64,000 nt of DNA, from IMG/VR virus record IMGVR_UViG_3300028591_000146, positions 30,040 through 94,039 of that record; one strand, written 5' to 3'. How positions within the stretch are numbered: the stretch's first letter is position 1; each line of letters begins with the position of its first letter. The translations under genes and the position numbers were made by a program. Under the pieces are notes generated by a model. That model worked only from the letters and a program-made list of their open reading frames with translations, was not told the DNA's origin and made no database searches. Below are positions 3,975-45,034 of this stretch, in pieces. This DNA comes from a virus (lineage: Duplodnaviria > Caudoviricetes).

Positions 3975-4047
3975 TATAAGACCCCCAGACAAAATTGTAA
4001 TCTCGCTTTATAAAGCGTTATGAATATTAAATAAAGGACGTGAATTT

Positions 4048-4992
4048 ATGATTCAGATTATACAGGAAACAGCACTACCGAAATTATCTCAGACTTCATT
4101 GTATGAGAAATTCAACGAAACTTCTGATCTCAGTAATGGTGTTCGTGAAGAGATCAAGAAGATGAAAGAGTATAGAGTAAACCCTGAACATATTCAGGAG
4201 GTTATTTCAATAATGAAACTCAATGGTGATGCTATCTGCAAGAAAGCAATCGAAGCTGTCATCAAAGGTGAAATCATCATTCTTGATAATAAGGAAACAT
4301 CTAAGATTCCAGTATGTCTTCCATACATCATAATCTCTAAGGATGGTAAACATACAGCATTTGTATTTGCTAATACATTCCTTGACGTTATTACATCACT
4401 ACAAGAAACACCTAAACTCATGGCTGTACTTGAAGCTGCGTATCTTGCATTATGTATCACTCGTAAACAGAATGATTTCATAATGAACTCACAGCTAATG
4501 TTAACTTTGTGTAAGGTTTGGTTGGTAATGGTTACAGCTCCACTCCAACAAAAACTCTACATGAAGGGTGATAATCTTAACAAAGCGATGTTGTATCTCA
4601 TCACATATTTCTACATGTTATTCAGAGATGTCAATGAGCTTGATGCTACATCAATCCCATATGCAAAGATTATGGATGACAAGATTGATGCTAAGATTGC
4701 AGCTTCTATTATTGAAGATGCTAAAACTATAGGTTCTCAGAACTTCATGGATATTATCAATAAGATTAAGAAGATAAATGCTATACGTTATAAAGACTTG
4801 GATTCCATGTATATGTCATACTTCACAACTGTATGTGGAACCCCATTGATATTCAGTATCGAAAATATCTCATATCTGTTCTTGTTGCTTACTTCTTCAG
4901 CATACAAAACTAACATGACTGGATATGGTCTGAATAAACTTGTGCAACTCACATCAAGAAAGATACTCAATGTAATGTCAAGTATAGTATAA
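4048..4992 (+). CDS. hypothetical protein
   Basis: 314-aa ORF with AAAGGA RBS. Confidence 0.75.
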   Translation: MIQIIQETALPKLSQTSLYEKFNETSDLSNGVREEIKKMKEYRVNPEHIQEVISIMKLNGDAICKKAIEAVIKGEIIILDNKETSKIPVCLPYIIISKDGKHTAFVFANTFLDVITSLQETPKLMAVLEAAYLALCITRKQNDFIMNSQLMLTLCKVWLVMVTAPLQQKLYMKGDNLNKAMLYLITYFYMLFRDVNELDATSIPYAKIMDDKIDAKIAASIIEDAKTIGSQNFMDIINKIKKINAIRYKDLDSMYMSYFTTVCGTPLIFSIENISYLFLLLTSSAYKTNMTGYGLNKLVQLTSRKILNVMSSIV

Positions 4993-10569: not shown

Positions 10570-11040
10570 TTAGTTCTTATCGCTGTCAGTCATACCTGCG
10601 ATCTTGTTTCTGATTCCTTTCACGTGATCAACCGCAGATTTTATGTTTGCGATCTCATTTGTGATTGACATTGCATAGGTGTCGATGCCTTTTACTATAT
10701 CATTGGTTCTGCTTTCCTGAGAGTTTATTCTGTTTTCGAGCTTCTGGAATTTCGCATCAGAATCGATGCGATTGAGACGAGTATTACGCTCTCTCATTTC
10801 CTCGAGCTCCTTTTCAGACTTTCTTCTTGCCTCAGCCTGCTCAGCATCGTGCTTGTTCTGCTGAGCAAGAACCTCTTTGATGAGAGTTCCTACTACAGGC
10901 AGCGCCTTGTTAAGTGTCTCACCTGAGGTCTTCATGTCCTCAGCGGATACTTCAGTTGCGAGATTGAGTTCGTCGAGATTGACGTTTACACCACTGTCGT
11001 TGAAGTTGAAGCCCTTGATTGAAATGTTGAAGTTTGCCAT
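10570..11040 (-). CDS. coiled-coil hypothetical protein (early cassette)
   Basis: 156 aa, AAGGAGG RBS, own promoter and leader. Confidence 0.8.
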   Translation of the reverse strand: MANFNISIKGFNFNDSGVNVNLDELNLATEVSAEDMKTSGETLNKALPVVGTLIKEVLAQQNKHDAEQAEARRKSEKELEEMRERNTRLNRIDSDAKFQKLENRINSQESRTNDIVKGIDTYAMSITNEIANIKSAVDHVKGIRNKIAGMTDSDKN

Positions 11041-34587: not shown

Positions 34588-35463
34588 ATGTTACCCGTAT
34601 TAAAACATTCAACGCAGAAGGTGTTTGTATCCCAGGCGATGCAACACTCAACACCTGAAAAGGTTCACGCAGAACGTGAAGAAATTATGGAGAAGCTGAA
34701 AAAGCTGTATCCGAATAATGAATTCATACTGATAGATCAGTACGACATTCAGGATCCACCCGAATGGGAATCCAAATCTCCCAGAGGCATCAGATGGGCA
34801 CGACTTGCACGTTCCATTGATATGATGGCAGATGCGGATCTCATTGTATTTACAAACAATGCATTGGATTACAATCAGACCGGTATACTTGCACCTGGTT
34901 GTATGTCCGAACATGCAGTTGCTTCCAAATATCAGAATGAATATCCAAATGAATATAAGATCATGTATGAATATCAGTTGGATTATGAACTGACGAGTAT
35001 CGACGTACCACAGTTCAATGTTAACATCATTGAATGTGTGAAAGCTGATATCGACAGATACAACAGATATTGGTGTGAGTTGATATCAGTTGTAAAGAAA
35101 CACATGCCTGATATTGATATGAATGATTTTCTGATCAACGATACAGTTAGTAATTGGGTGTTAGAATACTCTTTAGGTTCAATGAGTATTGTTGTATCAT
35201 TGAATAAATGTGTCGTAACCCATGACATTTGTTATGATGATGGTGCGTTCTTTGAATTCAGCATTTTTATACCGACGAATGATGTTCCGGGAACAACATA
35301 CGCGAATATCATCATTAGATCATACTACCGTGATGATCTGGTCAATGGCATCAGAGTTCATGAATGCACTGACACTAAAGTTCCAATTATAAAAGATATG
35401 TTCGATGAATTAAAGGAGGTATGCAAACATGAAACCAGAACCGATAAACCAGATCTCTTTTGA
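34588..35463 (+). CDS. protein with N-terminal nucleoside 2-deoxyribosyltransferase-like (DUF4406-like) domain
   Basis: KVFVSQAM...LARSIDMMADADLIVF...GCMSEH. Confidence 0.55.
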   Translation: MLPVLKHSTQKVFVSQAMQHSTPEKVHAEREEIMEKLKKLYPNNEFILIDQYDIQDPPEWESKSPRGIRWARLARSIDMMADADLIVFTNNALDYNQTGILAPGCMSEHAVASKYQNEYPNEYKIMYEYQLDYELTSIDVPQFNVNIIECVKADIDRYNRYWCELISVVKKHMPDIDMNDFLINDTVSNWVLEYSLGSMSIVVSLNKCVVTHDICYDDGAFFEFSIFIPTNDVPGTTYANIIIRSYYRDDLVNGIRVHECTDTKVPIIKDMFDELKEVCKHETRTDKPDLF

Positions 35464-35860
35464 GCCAGTTTTGTGTTTTGGTAAATTTGTACTGTTTACT
35501 GGACACAGAATCGACAGATCCACAGTCCCCGAAGGACTGTGGGTATACGACATCAGGCATGGTGACGAAGGAGATTGGACAGATCCAGTTGAAATTCTTC
35601 CACATGTATTATGTAACTATATGGGAAGTATCGTTTCAACAGAACGTTTTCCAATTGACTTTAAGGAGTCATACGTTATTATGGATCAGAACGGTGGAGA
35701 CTGGGATTATATCGAATGTCTTGAAGATGAAGATCTTTGGGATGATTATGATAACATTCCCGATACACTGGAAGGATATATAAACTACACGAAAAATGAA
35801 ACTGGTTGGGACATTCCACTGAGTAGTCTCTTACCAAGAGAAAAAGAGGAGGAAAATTAA
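35429..35860 (+). CDS. LPD28-like domain protein
   Basis: LFTGHRIDRSTVPEGLWVYDIRHGD...VLCNYMGSIVS. Confidence 0.65.
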   Translation: MKPEPINQISFEPVLCFGKFVLFTGHRIDRSTVPEGLWVYDIRHGDEGDWTDPVEILPHVLCNYMGSIVSTERFPIDFKESYVIMDQNGGDWDYIECLEDEDLWDDYDNIPDTLEGYINYTKNETGWDIPLSSLLPREKEEEN

Positions 35861-35861
35861 T

Positions 35862-36713
35862 ATGGTAGTCATGATAAACAAGAACGAGGTTTGTGTCGTA
35901 AATGATGAAGAAGTTTCAACATACCAGAATAAAGGTTATGAAACACTCATAACCGATATGGGTTTCCGCAAGCATCCTGAATATGTAGAATGGGACGTAT
36001 TTAATCACATTGACACAATATATCCGCTGACAATCAAAGCAGACAGATACAGTGGAGCTTATAGTAGAGGTAAATACACCGCATGGCCATGCGGTGAAGA
36101 GGATATACCAGATGGAGTATTCATGGATGATGTTACATGCGCCCACGAATGGGGTGTAATAAAATCTGAAAGACAGCATGTTGGTATTGGTTGTACACCA
36201 TCAGTTGCACTTCTCGATCTGTATCTGAAGCAGCATTCAATCTTTGTAGAAGATTACATGTTTACTGTAAAGAATACAGACGATGGTATCAGTATCACAC
36301 CATTGAATGAAAGACCTATTAAAATAGATTTTAATACTGCAATGAAGATTGCGGAAATGGTGAGCTCTAAAGCAAGAGCAAAAGCTGATGCTGTAACTGA
36401 TAATGAAAGAGTTACTGATATTGCTGAGATGGAAGAAGAACCGTATAATTCACTCATCGATCCTGCATGGTATACAATGAGACTTGACGAGCTTGATCTT
36501 GAAAATGCAGCTCTTATGGTATCATCGTACGTATCGGATTATGACAGTGATCTCGATACAGGAATCCTTGAGACTGAAGGTGGTATGCTTGTCGTTGACG
36601 TAATCAACAAGAAGACCCACGAGAGTGATACTGTATTCTGGAATGACGATGAGACATTCCGTGTATCATTCAAGGAAAGACTTCTCAGAGTTCTCAGAAA
36701 GTTAACAGCATGA
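35862..36713 (+). CDS. hypothetical protein
   Basis: IYPLTIKADRYSGAYSRGKYTAW conserved-looking motif; GAGGAGG RBS. Confidence 0.75.
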   Translation: MVVMINKNEVCVVNDEEVSTYQNKGYETLITDMGFRKHPEYVEWDVFNHIDTIYPLTIKADRYSGAYSRGKYTAWPCGEEDIPDGVFMDDVTCAHEWGVIKSERQHVGIGCTPSVALLDLYLKQHSIFVEDYMFTVKNTDDGISITPLNERPIKIDFNTAMKIAEMVSSKARAKADAVTDNERVTDIAEMEEEPYNSLIDPAWYTMRLDELDLENAALMVSSYVSDYDSDLDTGILETEGGMLVVDVINKKTHESDTVFWNDDETFRVSFKERLLRVLRKLTA

Positions 36714-37963: not shown

Positions 37964-38200
37964 ATGTACACAATAGAAATCTCATGGGGTACATGTAGAG
38001 AATACAAAGTTAAACCCATAGCTGCGGAGAGCTTTGACAAAATGATCTCCGTTCTTCAGGGAGCTTGGGATGTAAATGTCCAGACTCTCAACATATCTGC
38101 AAAGGTGTGTGAAAATGACAAAGTTATTTATGATGGACCTCTCAACCAGTATGTGGTTAATGGATTCCGTTATAAAGCTATGAAGGAGGGAAAAGAATGA
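37964..38200 (+). CDS. hypothetical protein
   Basis: AAGGAGGTG RBS. Confidence 0.7.
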   Translation: MYTIEISWGTCREYKVKPIAAESFDKMISVLQGAWDVNVQTLNISAKVCENDKVIYDGPLNQYVVNGFRYKAMKEGKE

Positions 38201-40461
38201 ATTCCGCAGAATTAATAAAAATCGTATATGAATGGCTCAAGGATCTTGGAGTTGATCACAAATTCGATGTCCTCAGAGAAATGGATTGGGGAATGGATAA
38301 ATTCACAGTCAACTATAAAGATAGTATGTTCCATATCAATGTCATGACGATACTTGATGGTTCGATTGATCTCACTATCAACGATGAACCTATTCTGTCA
38401 ATCAATACGGAGACCGGTCATGTCACCATTGATGATTACTATCACAAGACTGTGTATGAAAAGAAGATGGGTCCACTTGCATTCTATCAGATCAATGATC
38501 TCTGCACAAGAGTAAAGAGTCCTATAACATCAAAGGTTTACGATATTGCTAAAGGTGTTGAAGAATGGCTCTCACATATGACAGTAACATATGACCAGCA
38601 TATCTATCATCCCACCGTAATATCAACTGGTATACAGTATGATGTTAAATCCGGTGACCACACCATTACAATCAAGATCTTTGTTCTGGAAGACAGATGT
38701 GTTCTTAAGATGAATGATGTAACAGTCTTGACATATAAGGATATGGTTCTGTTGAACATCAATGGTACATTCCCTCCGTTCTCACATGCTGAAATCATGA
38801 ATCTTGCGAAGTGTGTTTCTAAGCATACCGGTAACAACGAAGATGTTCGTGAACTCGAACAATGGGAAATTGGATCCAAGTGTTTCAATGTCGTTGAACA
38901 GTTCATCATGAAACTCACAAAGACAAATCCTCATTTCAGCAACGCTCGTTGTGTTGATAATAAAAAGGATTACAGTGAATGGAATGTTGACGCTGGAGTT
39001 ACTTCAAAGAGCAATGTAAGAATAAAACTTGTATGGCATAATAATAATCATTATATAATGTCAATAAGCACTCCATGCAAATGGTTCCATCTCTTCGATG
39101 TATATGATAACGGCTCTGTTATCAAATACTCTGAAGCCGGTGTACATAATATTCTTGATCAGGAATATCTTGATGATTTGTATGATGGATTCAAAAGAGT
39201 TTTCAATAATTTTGGAGACGATAAGAAATCTGAATCTGATGATGACAAACATCTCACTGATATCAAGGTTAGAGTGTATAAATGGTTGAAAGGTTTTATC
39301 AACATACATGGTGGACACATTGATGTATTCAGTGATAACAGTTGGACCTATCACGCCAACTTCAATGGAAAACCATCAGTCACTGTTGGAATATGCAATG
39401 CGCATGATAAATACTTATGGATCGGCAATCCTAGTAATAGAGTCATATTGTTCGATGTGAATGACAACTGGAAAGCTGAATTGTATGCATTCCATCATGA
39501 GTGGTTCCCAATAATGCAACAAGACATATTCAGACTTCAGGAGTCTCTTAATGAACTCTACTTAGCAAACAAACCTGATTCCACTGATGAGGATCTGCTT
39601 GCATCAATCAGTAAAGAATACAGAACAATCACTGATGTTCTGACCGATGATTTCAAGGAGAAAGTGGATGAACGCAACAAGGAATATGAGGAAATGAAAA
39701 AGTTCATCGATGACCTCAAGAAACTCGTTGAAGAAGACCCTGAACTTGCTGCAAAGAAACTTGGAATCAAATGTGCTGATGACATAGTCCACAAACAACC
39801 TGAATGTGCATATACATTCACTGAGAGTGGTGTGAAGTGTACATATGTGGATGATGGTTCCATGGAAGACACTGTGGTGATATCAAAATCTGCAGCTGAG
39901 AAACTCTGCTCGAAACCTCCTGCTGTTATCAATAATGCAAGTGACTTCATAGAGAAATCTATGTTGCTTAATGCATTTCCTCCTAAGGTCGAGGTTGTTA
40001 AGTCTAGACCTCATAACTTCAAGACTTGGGCTGGAATGTTCTCTCACAGACCAGTTGACGAAATCAGAAAAGATCTCAAAGAAGCTGTTGAGGGATTTAA
40101 ACCTGATGTATGTTATATCGATAAAATATTTGCAGCTGATGTTATTAATATAAGAAAGGATGAAAGTAAAATGAATATCCCTACAATAAAGCATGTTCTC
40201 TTTAATGAGACGAAGAAAGTCACAACAGTTCTCTTCACCGATGGAACTCGTGTGACATCAAAAGCGGTGCCTAATGTTGAATTCGATCCTGAGGTCGGAT
40301 TCGCTATGTGCATCATGAAGAAGCTTTATGGTAACAGATCCAAGTTCCAGAAGGTAATCAAGAAATACCGCAAAGCTGGAGAGCACAGAAACAAGAAGAT
40401 TGCTGATAAGGCAGAGCGTAAAGAAGCTAATGCTGAAAAAGCATCTGACGAAGAAATATAA
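38197..40461 (+). CDS. large multidomain hypothetical protein
   Basis: 754 aa; repeated ~110-aa units; C-terminal TTVLFTDGT...FDPEVGFAMCIMKK domain. Confidence 0.8.
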   Translation: MNSAELIKIVYEWLKDLGVDHKFDVLREMDWGMDKFTVNYKDSMFHINVMTILDGSIDLTINDEPILSINTETGHVTIDDYYHKTVYEKKMGPLAFYQINDLCTRVKSPITSKVYDIAKGVEEWLSHMTVTYDQHIYHPTVISTGIQYDVKSGDHTITIKIFVLEDRCVLKMNDVTVLTYKDMVLLNINGTFPPFSHAEIMNLAKCVSKHTGNNEDVRELEQWEIGSKCFNVVEQFIMKLTKTNPHFSNARCVDNKKDYSEWNVDAGVTSKSNVRIKLVWHNNNHYIMSISTPCKWFHLFDVYDNGSVIKYSEAGVHNILDQEYLDDLYDGFKRVFNNFGDDKKSESDDDKHLTDIKVRVYKWLKGFINIHGGHIDVFSDNSWTYHANFNGKPSVTVGICNAHDKYLWIGNPSNRVILFDVNDNWKAELYAFHHEWFPIMQQDIFRLQESLNELYLANKPDSTDEDLLASISKEYRTITDVLTDDFKEKVDERNKEYEEMKKFIDDLKKLVEEDPELAAKKLGIKCADDIVHKQPECAYTFTESGVKCTYVDDGSMEDTVVISKSAAEKLCSKPPAVINNASDFIEKSMLLNAFPPKVEVVKSRPHNFKTWAGMFSHRPVDEIRKDLKEAVEGFKPDVCYIDKIFAADVINIRKDESKMNIPTIKHVLFNETKKVTTVLFTDGTRVTSKAVPNVEFDPEVGFAMCIMKKLYGNRSKFQKVIKKYRKAGEHRNKKIADKAERKEANAEKASDEEI

Positions 40462-40670
40462 AAAGTGGAACAAAGTAACATATAAATACATCAATCATTA
40501 ATTGAATGAACCTGTCAAATGATTTTGATTAATGATTGATGACATTACCTTAGGCGACATGCATGTTATTCGCGGTCATTGAAGAGTAGACAGCTGGTGC
40601 ATGTCCGCCATGGTATTCTATATCGAGGAATGCCTCCTCAATTCCCCGGGTGTTTGTACATCCGGGATCT

Positions 40671-40743
40671 CGCACGTTAGCTCAGTTGGTAGAGCATATG
40701 ATTCATACCCATATGGTCGGTTGTTCGATTCAACCACGTGCGA
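40671..40743 (+). tRNA. tRNA-Met/Ile2 (CAT)
   Basis: CGCACGT/ACGTGCG acceptor, GCTC/GAGC D-stem, loop TTCATAC, GGTTG-TTCGATT-CAACC. Confidence 0.85.
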
Positions 40744-40749
40744 CTATAT

Positions 40750-41056
40750 GCCTGAATGTCGAAATCGGCAGACGAGACAGAATATTGAACAGATGGTGAA
40801 CAATTTATGGATAAATTTGTTAATCAATACTTGAATTTCCTTAAAACATACATATTCCCAAAACAATGTTCATCTTATTATGGAAGAATGACTCAATTAG
40901 GTAAACATCCCGATATGGCGAAATAGGCATACGCGCTGGCTTCAAGTACCAGTTCCGAAAGGAATATGAGTTCGACTCTCATTATCGGGATTTTCCATCA
41001 TCTGTTCAAAATCTGTTGTGAGAAATCACGTGTGGGTTCAAGTCCCACTTCAGGTA
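40750..41056 (+). tRNA. interrupted tRNA-Leu(CAA): 5' part 40750-40781, 3' part 41005-41056
   Basis: GCCTGAA/TTCAGGT acceptor, ACAGA/TCTGT anticodon stem, loop TTCAAAA, long variable arm, GTGGG-TTCAAGT-CCCAC; 223-nt insert. Confidence 0.75.
40909..40990 (+). tRNA. tRNA-Leu(CAA), nested within the insert of the interrupted tRNA-Leu
   Basis: CCCGATA/TATCGGG acceptor, loop TTCAAGT, TTCC-GAAA-GGAA variable arm, ATGAG-TTCGACT-CTCAT. Confidence 0.85.
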
Positions 41057-41166
41057 TTAAGGGATGACCATCAAAGACTTGTTTGCGTGTCTCTGACTTT
41101 TGGTTCACCGGTCATCTCTCTCACCCCTATCCCCGGGTAGCCTTGCGTATCTACCCGGGCAAAAAA

Positions 41167-41280
41167 CGACGGATAACTCAGCTGGTAGAGTACGTAAAGG
41201 AATCTAGATTTAGATTCGTACAGCAATTAACTTGCATTCTAAGCACGGTGTCGTAGGTTCGAGTCCTACTCCGTCGACCA
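41167..41280 (+). tRNA. interrupted tRNA-Arg(TCT) with 38-nt insert (41196-41233)
   Basis: CGACGGA/TCCGTCG acceptor plus encoded CCA; removing the insert gives CGTGC-ATTCTAA-GCACG and exactly 76 nt. Confidence 0.75.
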
Positions 41281-41363
41281 TTATTGTTATTGATATTCCG
41301 GGGCACGAAGCCCCGGAATATTTAATAATATATTTTATATTAAATTAAAAGGAGAGATTTAAA

Positions 41364-42443
41364 ATGACAGATCATGAAAAGGAATTAAACGATATGAGGG
41401 TGAAAGACTTCCTTAAACGAGCTGAAGTTCTTAAGGAGATACAAGTTCCATTGTATGCATTAACAGATGTCACTGAAGAAATCAAGAGTATCTTCACACA
41501 GAGAGTTGAAGGTTACATGGAGATGTCACCCGAACAGAATGTATACGATCAGTATATAATGTCAGCAGAAACATGCGATGTTGAAAGGGATCTTCATGAA
41601 TTTGAATTCAATAAGAAGTTATATGGTTTAACCAACCTTGGACTTGCACCAGCAGACATCTTCTTCTCAAACACCATACCTGTTAAACACATGGTAATTC
41701 AACCAAAACTTTATCCAACCGACAAAGTAATTGACTCATATGAGCTTCATGTTGTTGATGATGAAACACGACTTAAGAATATTCAAGCTGTTCTCAATGG
41801 AGATGCTAAAAATGCTACTGTTATGTGGATGCGGCATACAGCATATACAATAAAGAATGGTGTTAAAGGTTGGATGAGGGTATATAAGAAATTCACTGTA
41901 GAAAAAGATGCCAACTATATTGGACTAAATAAAACCATATATCTGGAAACATCTGAATCATTCAAGGAATTATTCGGTGTGGAAGTTTACAGAAGAAGTC
42001 CGGTTCATTCATTAAATTTGCTTGGTGAAGAAGAACACCAGGTTATGATGGAAGTATATAACGCATGGTATACTCTTCAGCAGTGTATCTTAACAAAAGA
42101 ACTTAGTTCGTATGTCAAGAAGACAAGAACCTCAATGGATTTCATGAAGAATAAATACGTATCAAGTAAGAATAAGAAGATGATAAATAAATACATCATT
42201 CAGCTTGAGAAAATCCAGGAGGCTTTCATTATCAACTCTGAAGAAACTGGAGATTCTGGTAGAAAGTATCGTAAACCATTATGGCACGTAACCGGTCATT
42301 GGAGACATTATAAATCCGGTAAAATGGTCTTCGTTCAGGGCTACTGGAAAGGTTCAGAAAGAAATAACGACAACATCAAGACTGCACCTGTTGAGATCTC
42401 AATTGACAACTGGCTTGACACACTTAATGTCGACAACAATTAA
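41364..42443 (+). CDS. hypothetical protein with C-terminal V(T/R)GHWR motif
   Basis: WHVTGHWRHYKSGKMVFVQGYWKG. Confidence 0.8.
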   Translation: MTDHEKELNDMRVKDFLKRAEVLKEIQVPLYALTDVTEEIKSIFTQRVEGYMEMSPEQNVYDQYIMSAETCDVERDLHEFEFNKKLYGLTNLGLAPADIFFSNTIPVKHMVIQPKLYPTDKVIDSYELHVVDDETRLKNIQAVLNGDAKNATVMWMRHTAYTIKNGVKGWMRVYKKFTVEKDANYIGLNKTIYLETSESFKELFGVEVYRRSPVHSLNLLGEEEHQVMMEVYNAWYTLQQCILTKELSSYVKKTRTSMDFMKNKYVSSKNKKMINKYIIQLEKIQEAFIINSEETGDSGRKYRKPLWHVTGHWRHYKSGKMVFVQGYWKGSERNNDNIKTAPVEISIDNWLDTLNVDNN

Positions 42444-42504
42444 CCGGTAGGATATATATATATTACACAATATAGTGAACATATAAATATATTGTGTAAT
42501 ATAT

Positions 42505-42577
42505 GAGAATATAGCGCAGTCGGTAGCGCAACGCTCTTTTAAAGCGTGGGTCGAGAGTTCGAGCCTCTCTATTCTCA
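42505..42577 (+). tRNA. tRNA-Lys(TTT)
   Basis: GAGAATA/TATTCTC, ACGCT-CTTTTAA-AGCGT, GAGAG-TTCGAGC-CTCTC. Confidence 0.92.
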
Positions 42578-42798
42578 TTAGGTGGTCTTCAGACAACCAC
42601 CAGATATCTTCCTAACAGCCAGCGTATCTAAACAATGCGCTGGTACATATGTACATTCTTAAGTTGGTCGCTTAGAATGTGCTCCCCCTAGCGACATTCA
42701 TGGTCGCGACATATCCTTTCAATATGGCTCCCGAAGGAGCCATATACCTCTATTTTTTATACTGGATTATAAATTTTATATGAAAGGAGTGTTTCTAT

Positions 42799-43179
42799 AT
42801 GAAACCTGAGATTGAACAGAGAATGCAGACAGAAATCACAAACGCAACTAAATGGAATCAGTTGTTTGATACCATTGTTGGTGTGACTGAAACTGTATTC
42901 GAAACAACAATGACATTCGTACCTGACAACATGTTCGAAGGAACTCCAACGGTTGGTACAACCAGACTCAAAATCAGTATTATATGTAATGATAATGTGT
43001 GGGATACAATCACCGTATCAATTAACAACTTCGAGACTGATGAAAGATATGAATCTCTGACAATTGACCTCCAGGGTAATATCAGAGAAGAAGGAGTTCG
43101 TATACCGAGATCCATCAGATCAACCATCTATGAATACATCGATGAGATCGATCTTGCAATCAACCCTGAAGAAGAATGA
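42799..43179 (+). CDS. hypothetical protein
   Basis: AAAGGAG RBS. Confidence 0.75.
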   Translation: MKPEIEQRMQTEITNATKWNQLFDTIVGVTETVFETTMTFVPDNMFEGTPTVGTTRLKISIICNDNVWDTITVSINNFETDERYESLTIDLQGNIREEGVRIPRSIRSTIYEYIDEIDLAINPEEE

Positions 43180-43246
43180 CTGTGAATATTCCGGGGATAA
43201 TCCCCGGAATATATTTTTTTATTTTTAACAACATTAAAGTATATGA

Positions 43247-43319
43247 TTGGGCATCGTCAAGCGGTAAAGACAATAGATTTTGAATCTATCATACGCAGGT
43301 TCAAATCCTGCTGCCCAAA
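43247..43319 (+). tRNA. tRNA-Gln(TTG)
   Basis: TTGGGCA/TGCCCAA, ATAGA-TTTTGAA-TCTAT, GCAGG-TTCAAAT-CCTGC. Confidence 0.9.
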
Positions 43320-43568
43320 TTCTGAGGAAACAATTTCCTCAAAACATTATCCAGTGAAATTTATCCAACACTGGAGTAGTGTCTCCTTCAATGGTTCAGG
43401 AATTGGTTTAACCATTCCATCTCATTCAATCGTTTTTCACGATTGTCTCCTTAACTTATTTGGGCTGGGTGATGTGCTCCACCTTTTCATCACCTAAACC
43501 ACTATTTGTTCTATACTGTTTCTTTATCCTAAGCATACCCGGGTTATTCCCGGGTATCTATTTTTTCT

Positions 43569-43598
43569 AAATTCCATATTTATATTATTTAAGTGGAT
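43569..43598 (+). promoter_or_regulatory. putative early promoter
   Basis: Identical to 33794-33823. Confidence 0.7.
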
Positions 43599-43644
43599 TC
43601 AAGAAACACAGAATCAAAAAAACTATTTGGAGGTATAGAAGCAA

Positions 43645-43719
43645 ATGTTTAAGAAACTTATAAACTTCGTAAAAGATTTCATCTCGTTTCTTGGTGAAAT
43701 GTTATTTGCAATTAGATAA
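43645..43719 (+). CDS. 24-aa amphipathic peptide
   Basis: GGAGGT RBS; MFKKLINFVKDFISFLGEMLFAIR; stop abuts next RBS. Confidence 0.6.
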   Translation: MFKKLINFVKDFISFLGEMLFAIR

Positions 43720-43733
43720 AGGAGGAATATAAA

Positions 43734-44471
43734 ATGCAAATATTATTAGACAACAAATCACTCGCAGAAAAAATAGCACATGTGGATGCGGTAGAATGTG
43801 TTGCATCGTGTGGTGATCATTATGGATATGACGCATTTCATAATGTTACCATTACAAAGGATGGTCTCGAATTTGATGTAGATTTCTACATTGGAGACCC
43901 GTATGACGTCGACTGGGATTACACACAACTCGATACGGAAACTGTCAGATTCAGATTTGATAAATTCGATCTGGAACTTATCAAAGAGGCTTCTAATTCT
44001 AAAGAACTCAATCAGACAGTTCACAGTCTCTTTACAACATACATCGATAATCTCAATAAAGAATTGAGTGCTTTGATCGGTGAAGGATATGTTGATTTCC
44101 AGACAATGATACATTATAATGGATATGCTGAAGTCATCAGAAGTTGGAAGAAACTTGAAGCTCGTAATGGTTGGCAGATAGCATGTCCAGAAAATTATAA
44201 TGCATCATTCAGTGTAAAACGCGGTGACAGCGATTGGGGTGCGCTCCAGTTCATATGGGGAACAGCGGTCTACAAGTTTGGAGACTATGGCACTTCACCA
44301 AGATTCGGATGGATAGACATAAGAGAACATCCAGAGTTCTATGAGTGGGTAGATGCCACCTGTTTAGATGATATAGACTATTCATTCAAGACAAGTGAAC
44401 TCACCAATGAATTCAGAAAGGTGGTGAAGAACCTTGGTACTGTCCGTCTTGAAAATGATGAGAGCGATTGA
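43734..44471 (+). CDS. hypothetical protein
   Basis: AAGGAGG RBS; FGDYGTSPRFGWI motif. Confidence 0.75.
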   Translation: MQILLDNKSLAEKIAHVDAVECVASCGDHYGYDAFHNVTITKDGLEFDVDFYIGDPYDVDWDYTQLDTETVRFRFDKFDLELIKEASNSKELNQTVHSLFTTYIDNLNKELSALIGEGYVDFQTMIHYNGYAEVIRSWKKLEARNGWQIACPENYNASFSVKRGDSDWGALQFIWGTAVYKFGDYGTSPRFGWIDIREHPEFYEWVDATCLDDIDYSFKTSELTNEFRKVVKNLGTVRLENDESD

Positions 44472-44572
44472 TGTACGGACCCTAATTGACTTCGGTGGAA
44501 TCGCAATTTGTATGCTGGTGTTGATCCGCTGTAGACAATTAGAAAAAATCAAAAAGAAAAGAGGTGGAACCA

Positions 44573-45034
44573 ATGGACGATAAGATTTACGTTCATTATG
44601 GATCGAATAACTTTGATCCAGACAAATTCGAAGAGCCATATTATGAAGGCAAGCTGAGATTCAAACCATGGGGTGGTTTGTGGGCTTCGGAAGATACTGA
44701 CAGAGATGGTTATTGGTCATGGAAAGACTGGTGTGAAGCAGAACAATTCCAGATTGGACGTTTGGACAGATGGTTTAGATTCAAACTCAATGACAATCAG
44801 AAAGCTTTTGTGATCGATGATACATCGGTAGTGGACACGCCATATGCTTTCTATCAGTATCCGTTTGAAGATACAACAGTATTTTCAAGAATATGGATTG
44901 ATGTCGAAAAACTTAAAGAGGATGGATACACCCATGTCGAATTCCATGAAAACGCCAAAACTCACTATCCGTTTTGGTCGTGGGACTGTGATTGCATATT
45001 TATCATAGACCCAACAGTAATAAGACCAATATAA
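44573..45034 (+). CDS. conserved phage hypothetical protein
   Basis: YVHYG...KPWGGLWAS...WKDWCEAE...WDCDCIFI. Confidence 0.75.
   Translation: MDDKIYVHYGSNNFDPDKFEEPYYEGKLRFKPWGGLWASEDTDRDGYWSWKDWCEAEQFQIGRLDRWFRFKLNDNQKAFVIDDTSVVDTPYAFYQYPFEDTTVFSRIWIDVEKLKEDGYTHVEFHENAKTHYPFWSWDCDCIFIIDPTVIRPI

Follow-up and report, generated by a model that had tools for sequence, protein, structure and literature searches.

What can a 38-nucleotide (nt) block do inside the anticodon stem of an otherwise normal transfer RNA (tRNA) gene of a bacterial virus? The question is raised by a tRNA-Arg(UCU) gene at positions 41167-41280 of a 64,000-nt stretch of viral DNA (hereafter the window), which corresponds to bases 30040-94039 of the 94-kilobase (kb) IMG/VR virus record IMGVR_UViG_3300028591_000146 (G000; G+C content 37%, CheckV completeness 35%). 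The source is a giant rumen phage whose gene content is of the bacterial jumbo phage type. To our knowledge, bacteria and their viruses interrupt tRNA genes only with self-splicing introns. The block at 41196-41233 is an instance of a portable RNA module in which a short helix precedes a single-stranded ACAGCA(A). The module recurs outside tRNAs and, in other phages, beside genes of the DUF2828 family. We give an even chance to the reading that it is a protein-docking handle on a tRNA-shaped RNA.

The gene is a tRNA interrupted between tRNA positions 29 and 30. In silico deletion of 41196-41233 yields a 76-nt tRNA-Arg(tct) in ARAGORN, with perfect stems of 7, 4, 5 and 5 base pairs (bp) and an encoded CCA, as had been proposed, together with the sequence of the insert, in an initial annotation made from the letters alone. 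Enumeration of all deletions with ARAGORN was too permissive to discriminate and was replaced by a strict restoration test that asks for a 5-bp anticodon stem, a 7-nt loop and a variable loop of 4-5 nt. This test passes one deletion alone, of 38 nt in two equivalent registers, and the restored arm has the stem CGTGC/GCACG and the loop ATTCTAA, with U33 and a purine at position 37. Two further features named in that annotation, the 7-bp hairpin GAATCTA (41200-41206)/TAGATTC (41211-41217) and the pairing of GCAA (41223-41226) with TTGC (41232-41235), are both present in the minimum-energy fold. Standard searches pass over the interrupted gene: ARAGORN called four tRNAs in the window, none of them at 41167-41280, and the six Rfam matches at E ≤ 1 across 39500-45000 include no tRNA match at this gene and no family matching the insert. 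The whole record holds six T-arm motifs, four in called tRNAs, one in the Arg gene and one in an outer split tRNA-Leu. A second Arg(UCU) gene was not seen in the available parts of the genomes. The parts of the locus, all on the + strand, are as follows.

41132-41159, + strand: upstream stem-loop CCCGGGTAG ... CTACCCGGG, 7 nt before the tRNA 5' end and kept in the relative G001; similar CCCGGG hairpins stand before tRNA-Met (read from the sequence).
41167-41195, + strand: 5' part of tRNA-Arg, with the acceptor 5' strand, the D arm and positions 26-29, ending in CGT (ARAGORN and strict test; acceptor and D stems covary across carriers).
41196-41233, + strand: the 38-nt insert between tRNA positions 29 and 30, its boundary sliding by 1 nt; in every DNA copy found.
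41200-41217, + strand: capped 7-bp helix, arms 41200-41206 and 41211-41217, loop GATT (fold and carrier alignment).
41218-41226, + strand: GT linker and ACAGCAA, the single-stranded, sequence-conserved part (carrier and module comparison).
41227-41233, + strand: variable tail TTAACTT, whose last bases, with G30 and C31, can pair with the GCAA of the module (fold; the tail differs between carriers).
41234-41280, + strand: 3' part of tRNA-Arg, with G30 and C31, the loop ATTCTAA (anticodon TCT at 41238-41240), GCACG, the variable loop, the T arm, the acceptor 3' strand and ACCA (ARAGORN, strict test and alignment).
41295-41319, + strand: GC-rich hairpin and T-rich stretch at the end of the Met-Leu-Arg unit, resembling a terminator by eye (a terminator scan found none).

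A CCCGGG...CCCGGG stem-loop lies a few bases before the mature 5' end of each tRNA unit (window, 40647-40668 and 41132-41159; L004, 14068-14100), and these stem-loops may be a processing or transcription signal.

A group I ribozyme needs about 200 nt or more, and the initial annotation was right to call a 38-nt insert far too short for self-splicing. A group I intron was rejected on this count and also on the grounds that the insert lies in a stem and not in the loop, ends in T and not in G, and contains no open reading frame (ORF) and no Rfam intron match. Like the insert, group I introns and inserts of I-Ssp6803I-type nucleases interrupt tRNA genes of bacteria and phages (PMC3984707). Archaeal bulge-helix-bulge introns share with it a short length and a non-canonical site in the anticodon stem, and they are removed by protein (PMC4090602). 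Such an intron, defined by two 3-nt bulges that hold the splice sites and a 4-bp helix between them, was rejected as well: none of five carriers reached four of four central pairs with flanking helices in any register, by hand or by script.

We then asked how widely the interrupted gene is kept. A search pattern fixed in the two exons, and allowing any 20-50 nt between them, recovered the same interrupted Arg gene in two viral contigs of 182 kb and 50 kb. The same gene recurs in related phage contigs, and the interruption is not due to chance. Only 4 of the 114 gene positions differ between the window and the 182-kb relative (G001), two in the D loop and two in the tail of the insert, whereas the proteins around the cluster are 33-88% identical between the two; the gene with its insert is thus far better conserved. 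Patterns built from the 5' exon alone matched two and three contigs, and all of them carry the insert. Four public runs were also compared with 40500-43500, three of DNA or DNA-like material (X19, X2 and X6) and one of RNA (X18, a sheep-gut metatranscriptome). Contigs of X19, X2 and X6 span the Arg gene with its insert and none skips it; those of X2 and X6 carry a T>C change at 41228. The insert is kept in every DNA copy found, which is the opposite of the absence or lack of conservation in relatives that the initial annotation had named as evidence against its claim. A search with the neighbouring 359-amino-acid (aa) ORF gave no loci, and alignment of neighbouring proteins recovered already known contigs only.

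The insert is also not confined to tRNA-Arg. Two further tRNA-like genes of G001, G001_2 and G001_3, contain the same core, and since both were spotted before any core-based search, the search pattern cannot have produced the identity of the core across the three genes of G001. Scans with the core matched the window 19 times and yielded 12 loci, which reduce to seven distinct sequences. The carriers are Arg(UCU), G001_3 (G-1:C73, loop ATATGGC), type X, which is a second G-1:C73 type (loop AAATGAA, or AACTGGA in L009), and G001_2; the type X copies were found through the core pattern, and the invariance of their core is partly ascertained for that reason. Three different tRNA bodies, all from related rumen jumbo phages, share an unchanged insert core. 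The helix arms are identical in all seven distinct copies, and the loop that they enclose varies (GATT, GTGA, GATG, GTTG). Among six carriers, compensatory changes occur in 13 of 27 consensus pairs, all of them in the acceptor, D or T stem, and the eight pairs predicted for the insert arm, seven in the helix and one a flanking A-U, are invariant. These compensatory changes argue that the tRNA bodies are under selection.

The strict test separates the carriers further. Every restorable carrier has the anticodon stem CGTGC/GCACG and is broken after CGT, and removal of the insert turns G001_3 exactly into a canonical tRNA that has U33 and a purine at 37. In G001_2 the acceptor, D and T arms are perfect, the T stem differs from that of type X by compensatory changes, and no deletion restores the anticodon arm. 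Type X copies have A33, and in L009 the anticodon has changed from ATG to CTG with the His-type G-1:C73 retained; both features make decoding by type X unlikely. Reading type X as His(GTG) would need a broken stem and was dropped.

What is conserved becomes clearer outside the tRNAs. In the layout met in the window, a helix of about 7-9 bp has its 3' strand followed within 0-5 nt by ACAGCA(A), here 41200-41217, GT and ACAGCAA. Both strands of the 182 kb of G001 were scanned for ACAGCA with a hairpin of 7 bp or more ending no further than 5 nt before it. Of 135 occurrences of ACAGCA, 9 have such a hairpin, and five of the nine fall within 733 nt at the tRNA cluster (35167-35899). Three of the five modules are the tRNA inserts and two lie in non-tRNA RNAs, with helices unrelated to that of the inserts, and the five have three unrelated helix sequences among them. 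One non-tRNA RNA holds its module within a 13-bp closing stem; the other has a 10-bp closing stem and, in addition, a T-loop-like hairpin. The module is present, too, in spacer-like RNAs between tRNAs. The helix is free to vary as long as pairing and ACAGCA stay, as the three G001 helices and further ones in L077, L079 and L047 attest, whereas the helix sequence of the tRNA-borne copies in this phage group never varies. The unit that is conserved is therefore the combination of a helix with ACAGCA(A), and not this one 38-nt sequence. Our literature searches on phage tRNA introns, YrlA and DUF2828 returned no description of this module, which is unpublished as far as those searches show.

Related arrangements were noted elsewhere. 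The window contains a structured RNA at 40553-40612, between a 754-aa ORF and tRNA-Met, with the closing stem GGCGACATGCA / TGCATGTCCGCC; it occupies the place of a G001 module RNA and reads ACAGCTG, with no preceding hairpin. On the minus strand of the 512-kb viral contig L084, positions 4020-4420 form a tandem array with a 51-nt period, in which five adjacent units consist of an 8-bp hairpin (7-bp in one), 1-2 nt and ACAGCAA, flanked by three further ACAGCAA with that period. A 57-nt array in L051 contains 17 ACAGCAA.

Three explanations give the module no role as a docking site or as an intron. According to the first, the insert acts on DNA, as a scar or as a shield against tRNA-directed homing endonucleases, in genes that are dead or dying. 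The tRNA clusters are indeed invaded by nuclease genes (a PDDEXK_5 ORF splits the tRNA-Lys of G001), the Leu gene of the window is split too, and the helix is a DNA palindrome. However, the compensatory changes preserve the acceptor, D and T stems in all carriers, gene and insert together are far better conserved than their neighbours, there is no presence/absence polymorphism of the kind seen for the Leu insert, and the modules with other helices keep pairing and ACAGCAA, which argues for a unit at the RNA level. We consider a DNA-level insert improbable.

A second explanation is excision without rejoining, or a processing signal: the module would guide a ribonuclease (RNase) that trims spacers and removes the arm, leaving a nicked two-piece tRNA whose stems hold it together, comparable to the case of bacterial 23S ribosomal RNA intervening sequences. 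The modules in spacer-like RNAs between tRNAs would suit this, and 7+3 bp, along with tertiary contacts, would still join the halves once both cuts were made. Against it, the insert offers no long duplex for RNase III, the data contain nothing specifically in its favour, and we know of no precedent for a working nicked anticodon stem; it appears very improbable. The third explanation is mimicry: a tRNA scaffold would display an imitation of some host RNA, either a CRISPR repeat or a type III antitoxin repeat, and disarm host defence. It draws on the 38-nt size and on the layout of hairpin and conserved tail, which resemble such repeats in general terms. However, no Rfam family covers the insert, and the core pattern is absent from 185,579 species genomes (representative bacteria and archaea) except for three chance matches in coding DNA of unrelated metagenome-assembled genomes. 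A host or bacterial origin of the core was rejected on the same matches, and we regard mimicry as very improbable too.

A possible partner emerged from other phages. A scan of viral sequences for three ACAGCAA spaced 90-120 nt apart gave at least 119 stretches, mostly coding or tandem repeats; 41 loci were taken from it and 33 records were searched for DUF2828, the arrays being informative in DUF2828-positive records only. DUF2828 is present in 5 of the 33 records. In four of these five, the array lies on the same strand as the DUF2828 gene and no more than 3.1 kb away, within 1 kb in three (L077, L079 and L089) and 3.1 kb upstream in L047. In the fifth (L104) the array is 84 kb from the gene and resembles a coding repeat. 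The DUF2828/DUF7788 protein next to such RNAs has a von Willebrand factor A (vWA)-type DxSGS motif.

The closest parallel to the Arg gene is in L077, a 170-kb record with terminal repeats in which module RNAs lie just upstream of a DUF2828/DUF7788 ORF. One of them, about 280 nt upstream of that ORF, is a tRNA-Thr(UGU)-shaped gene (10683-10808) that carries a capped 9-bp helix and ACAGCAA at positions 28/29 (module layout at 10720-10751). Removal of 52 nt gives a perfect tRNA-Thr(UGU) arm in the strict test, and the locus also holds an ordinary tRNA-Thr(UGU) of unrelated sequence. In L079 a closing stem encloses the cargo and ACAGCAA comes after its 5' strand; this is the same unit with its helix open instead of capped.

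Taken at face value, these observations suggest the following course for the Arg gene. In this gene, which is otherwise a normal tRNA-Arg(UCU) gene, the module interrupts the anticodon stem on its 5' strand. The gene is probably transcribed together with tRNA-Met and tRNA-Leu and would be trimmed like any tRNA, the CCA being encoded. The product would be a tRNA-shaped RNA with an extra arm at a three-way junction that still displays the authentic Arg anticodon loop. The arm most likely docks a protein, by analogy with the other phages perhaps one of the DUF2828/DUF7788 type, and the RNA would work unspliced as a tRNA-shaped particle (a bait, an adaptor or a reserve copy) and not as a conventionally spliced decoder. 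A docking handle explains the non-tRNA carriers, G001_2, type X and the Thr duplicate of L077.

Several points weigh against a docking handle. Binding of these RNAs by DUF2828 is putative, by analogy, and no DUF2828, DUF7788, TROVE or VWA_2 gene was found in the three genome records used for gene searches, G000 (35% complete), G001 (68%) and G002 (11%). A profile made from five DUF2828 proteins likewise found only its positive control (5.9e-247) and nothing in the three records, and nothing DUF2828-like lies within 30 kb of the cluster here, whereas the gene is adjacent in the other phages. The DUF2828 profile has no Ro60 match among PDB sequences, and its comparison with the Ro protein of phage Bxz1 gave an hhalign probability of 19% over 55 C-terminal columns. 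Our literature searches on DUF2828 found nothing on phage or RNA. The Arg gene itself is a further objection. Its restored form is a flawless decoder, the available parts show no second Arg(UCU) gene, and AGA, which the initial annotation had correctly called heavily used, accounts for 49% of the Arg codons in the contig of the window (922 codons from 50 ORFs of 200 aa or longer) and for 25% in G001. Flawless restoration, a sole Arg(UCU) gene and this codon use fit a tRNA required in translation.

The same facts are explained by a new, protein-dependent tRNA intron, in which an endonuclease (of the phage, of the host or part of a handle-binding particle) would cut at 29/30 on both sides of the insert and a ligase such as host RtcB would rejoin the ends. 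Canonical tRNAs with U33 and a purine at 37 are restored exactly in both Arg and G001_3, the 5-bp anticodon stem is maintained across the insert, and the module of the L077 tRNA-Thr is exactly removable too. The two restored anticodons, UCU and AUG, match preferred codons (AGA as above; CAT, 76-81% of His codons), and the scans with one exon alone turned up the insert in all contigs matched. Lak megaphages, moreover, carry unexplained conserved tRNA introns (PMC6784885).

Other observations speak against an intron. The joint 41195/41234 was seen in no read or contig of the four runs; the sole RNA run, X18, does not cover the gene, with no contig on the 5' part or the insert and, as its only piece there, 33 nt from a foreign contig, and stretches without X18 cover carry no information on expression. 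The available contigs encode none of the expected enzymes: RtcB (PF01139) and EndA (PF01974) gave no match in G000, G001 and G002, and neither an Rnl2-type ligase, Rnl1 (a search run without a positive control) nor a CCA enzyme was found in them. The module is also present where splicing is impossible, namely in the two non-tRNA RNAs and in G001_2; type X copies would yield tRNAs with A33; and L077 has a normal Thr(UGU) besides. On balance we regard an intron as the main rival of the docking handle and as possible, though less likely than the handle.

The docking and intron readings are not mutually exclusive. A module that is both handle and intron could allow a particle to keep a masked pre-tRNA-Arg(UCU), from which the arm is excised and the tRNA resealed on demand, for example when host anticodon nucleases deplete tRNA. 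We think this combination unlikely.

The known system closest to a docking handle is that of the YrlA Y RNAs and their partner Ro60/Rsr, in which the Ro-binding motif is GNCGAAN0-1G (Chen et al., 2014; PMC4201824) and of which a Ro/tRNA-like partnership in jumbo phages has been described (Iyer et al., 2021; PMC7824862). YrlA resembles the Arg gene in being a tRNA-shaped non-coding RNA with a protein-binding element on the anticodon side, encoded near tRNA genes, found also in large phages and processed by tRNA enzymes (PMC4201824, PMC7824862). In contrast, YrlA is permuted, ends at the binding stem and has no anticodon loop, whereas the Arg gene is in normal order with its loop intact. The Ro-binding motif (or GGUCCGA), expected near the 5' end of a long stem, is absent from 41167-41280. 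TROVE (PF05731) gave no match in the three records, in a search that found its controls and was positive for Bxz1; nor was there a YrlA or Y RNA match in Rfam at E ≤ 1 across 39500-45000, a result valid only if the release used includes the family. The RNAs beside the Ro gene of Bxz1 have GGCCGA-type motifs and no ACAGCAA. The initial annotation had suggested looking for co-occurrence of a hairpin-ACAGCAA model with Ro60-type proteins or RNA ligases; this pointed in the right direction.

The "enigmatic" introns of Lak megaphages are likewise short, highly conserved tRNA inserts for which no route of splicing is known (Devoto et al., 2019; PMC6784885). They differ in that the insert of the Lak example may itself encode a tRNA, and no hairpin-ACAGCAA unit is reported in the portions of that paper drawn on.

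The split tRNA-Leu of the window had been grouped with the Arg gene as one splicing or conditional-activation system. A common system is not supported: the Leu insert is about 223-237 nt long, lies at the loop, is without the module and is absent from a relative, one X19 contig joining 40767 to 41005 without the Leu insert and with the Arg insert kept. The tRNA-Lys of G001 (L002, 2838-3445) is interrupted in its anticodon loop by some 530 nt, nearly all of them a 160-aa PDDEXK_5 ORF (E = 1.2e-19) of the I-Ssp6803I type, which has its own ribosome-binding site and leaves no room for a ribozyme; the split junctions form a 10-nt inverted repeat that could pair. A tRNA-like stretch at 2590-2690 of L002 has good D and T arms and mismatched acceptor strands, and is without the module.

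Among the neighbouring genes, the 754-aa ORF upstream (38197-40461) was considered as a partner protein and rejected: it has no Pfam or PHROG match and no PDB sequence match, hhalign to DUF2828 gave 0.2%, and the ESM Atlas was uninformative. The protein is confined to this phage group. Its C-terminal 100 aa or so form a domain common among small proteins, with 5227 library matches at E ≤ 0.001 (10 at 1e-30) and no Pfam family; eight proteins from these matches gave no useful Pfam match. A 126-aa ORF between tRNA-Lys and tRNA-Gln (42799-43179) is 94-98% identical in three relatives (neighbouring proteins, 55-89%), is absent from G001 and matches nothing in Pfam or PHROG; it is either mobile or under unusual constraint. 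Contigs of X18 exactly match the ORF parts 42030-42351 and 42782-43178, which is consistent with expression of those parts and is no proof of it, as DNA may occur in such libraries.

Overall, an insert unable to self-splice is fixed in otherwise flawless tRNA genes and is better conserved than the surrounding proteins, and its module recurs across unrelated large phages, adjoining one uncharacterised protein family. Either reading, if true, would be new: the first would add a second kind of tRNA-shaped ribonucleoprotein beside Ro60/Y RNA, and the other would establish protein-dependent tRNA splicing in bacterial viruses. Were the module both handle and intron, it would amount to protein-guided conditional tRNA splicing in a virus of bacteria. 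The tRNA-Arg gene offers a clean, testable example for both readings.
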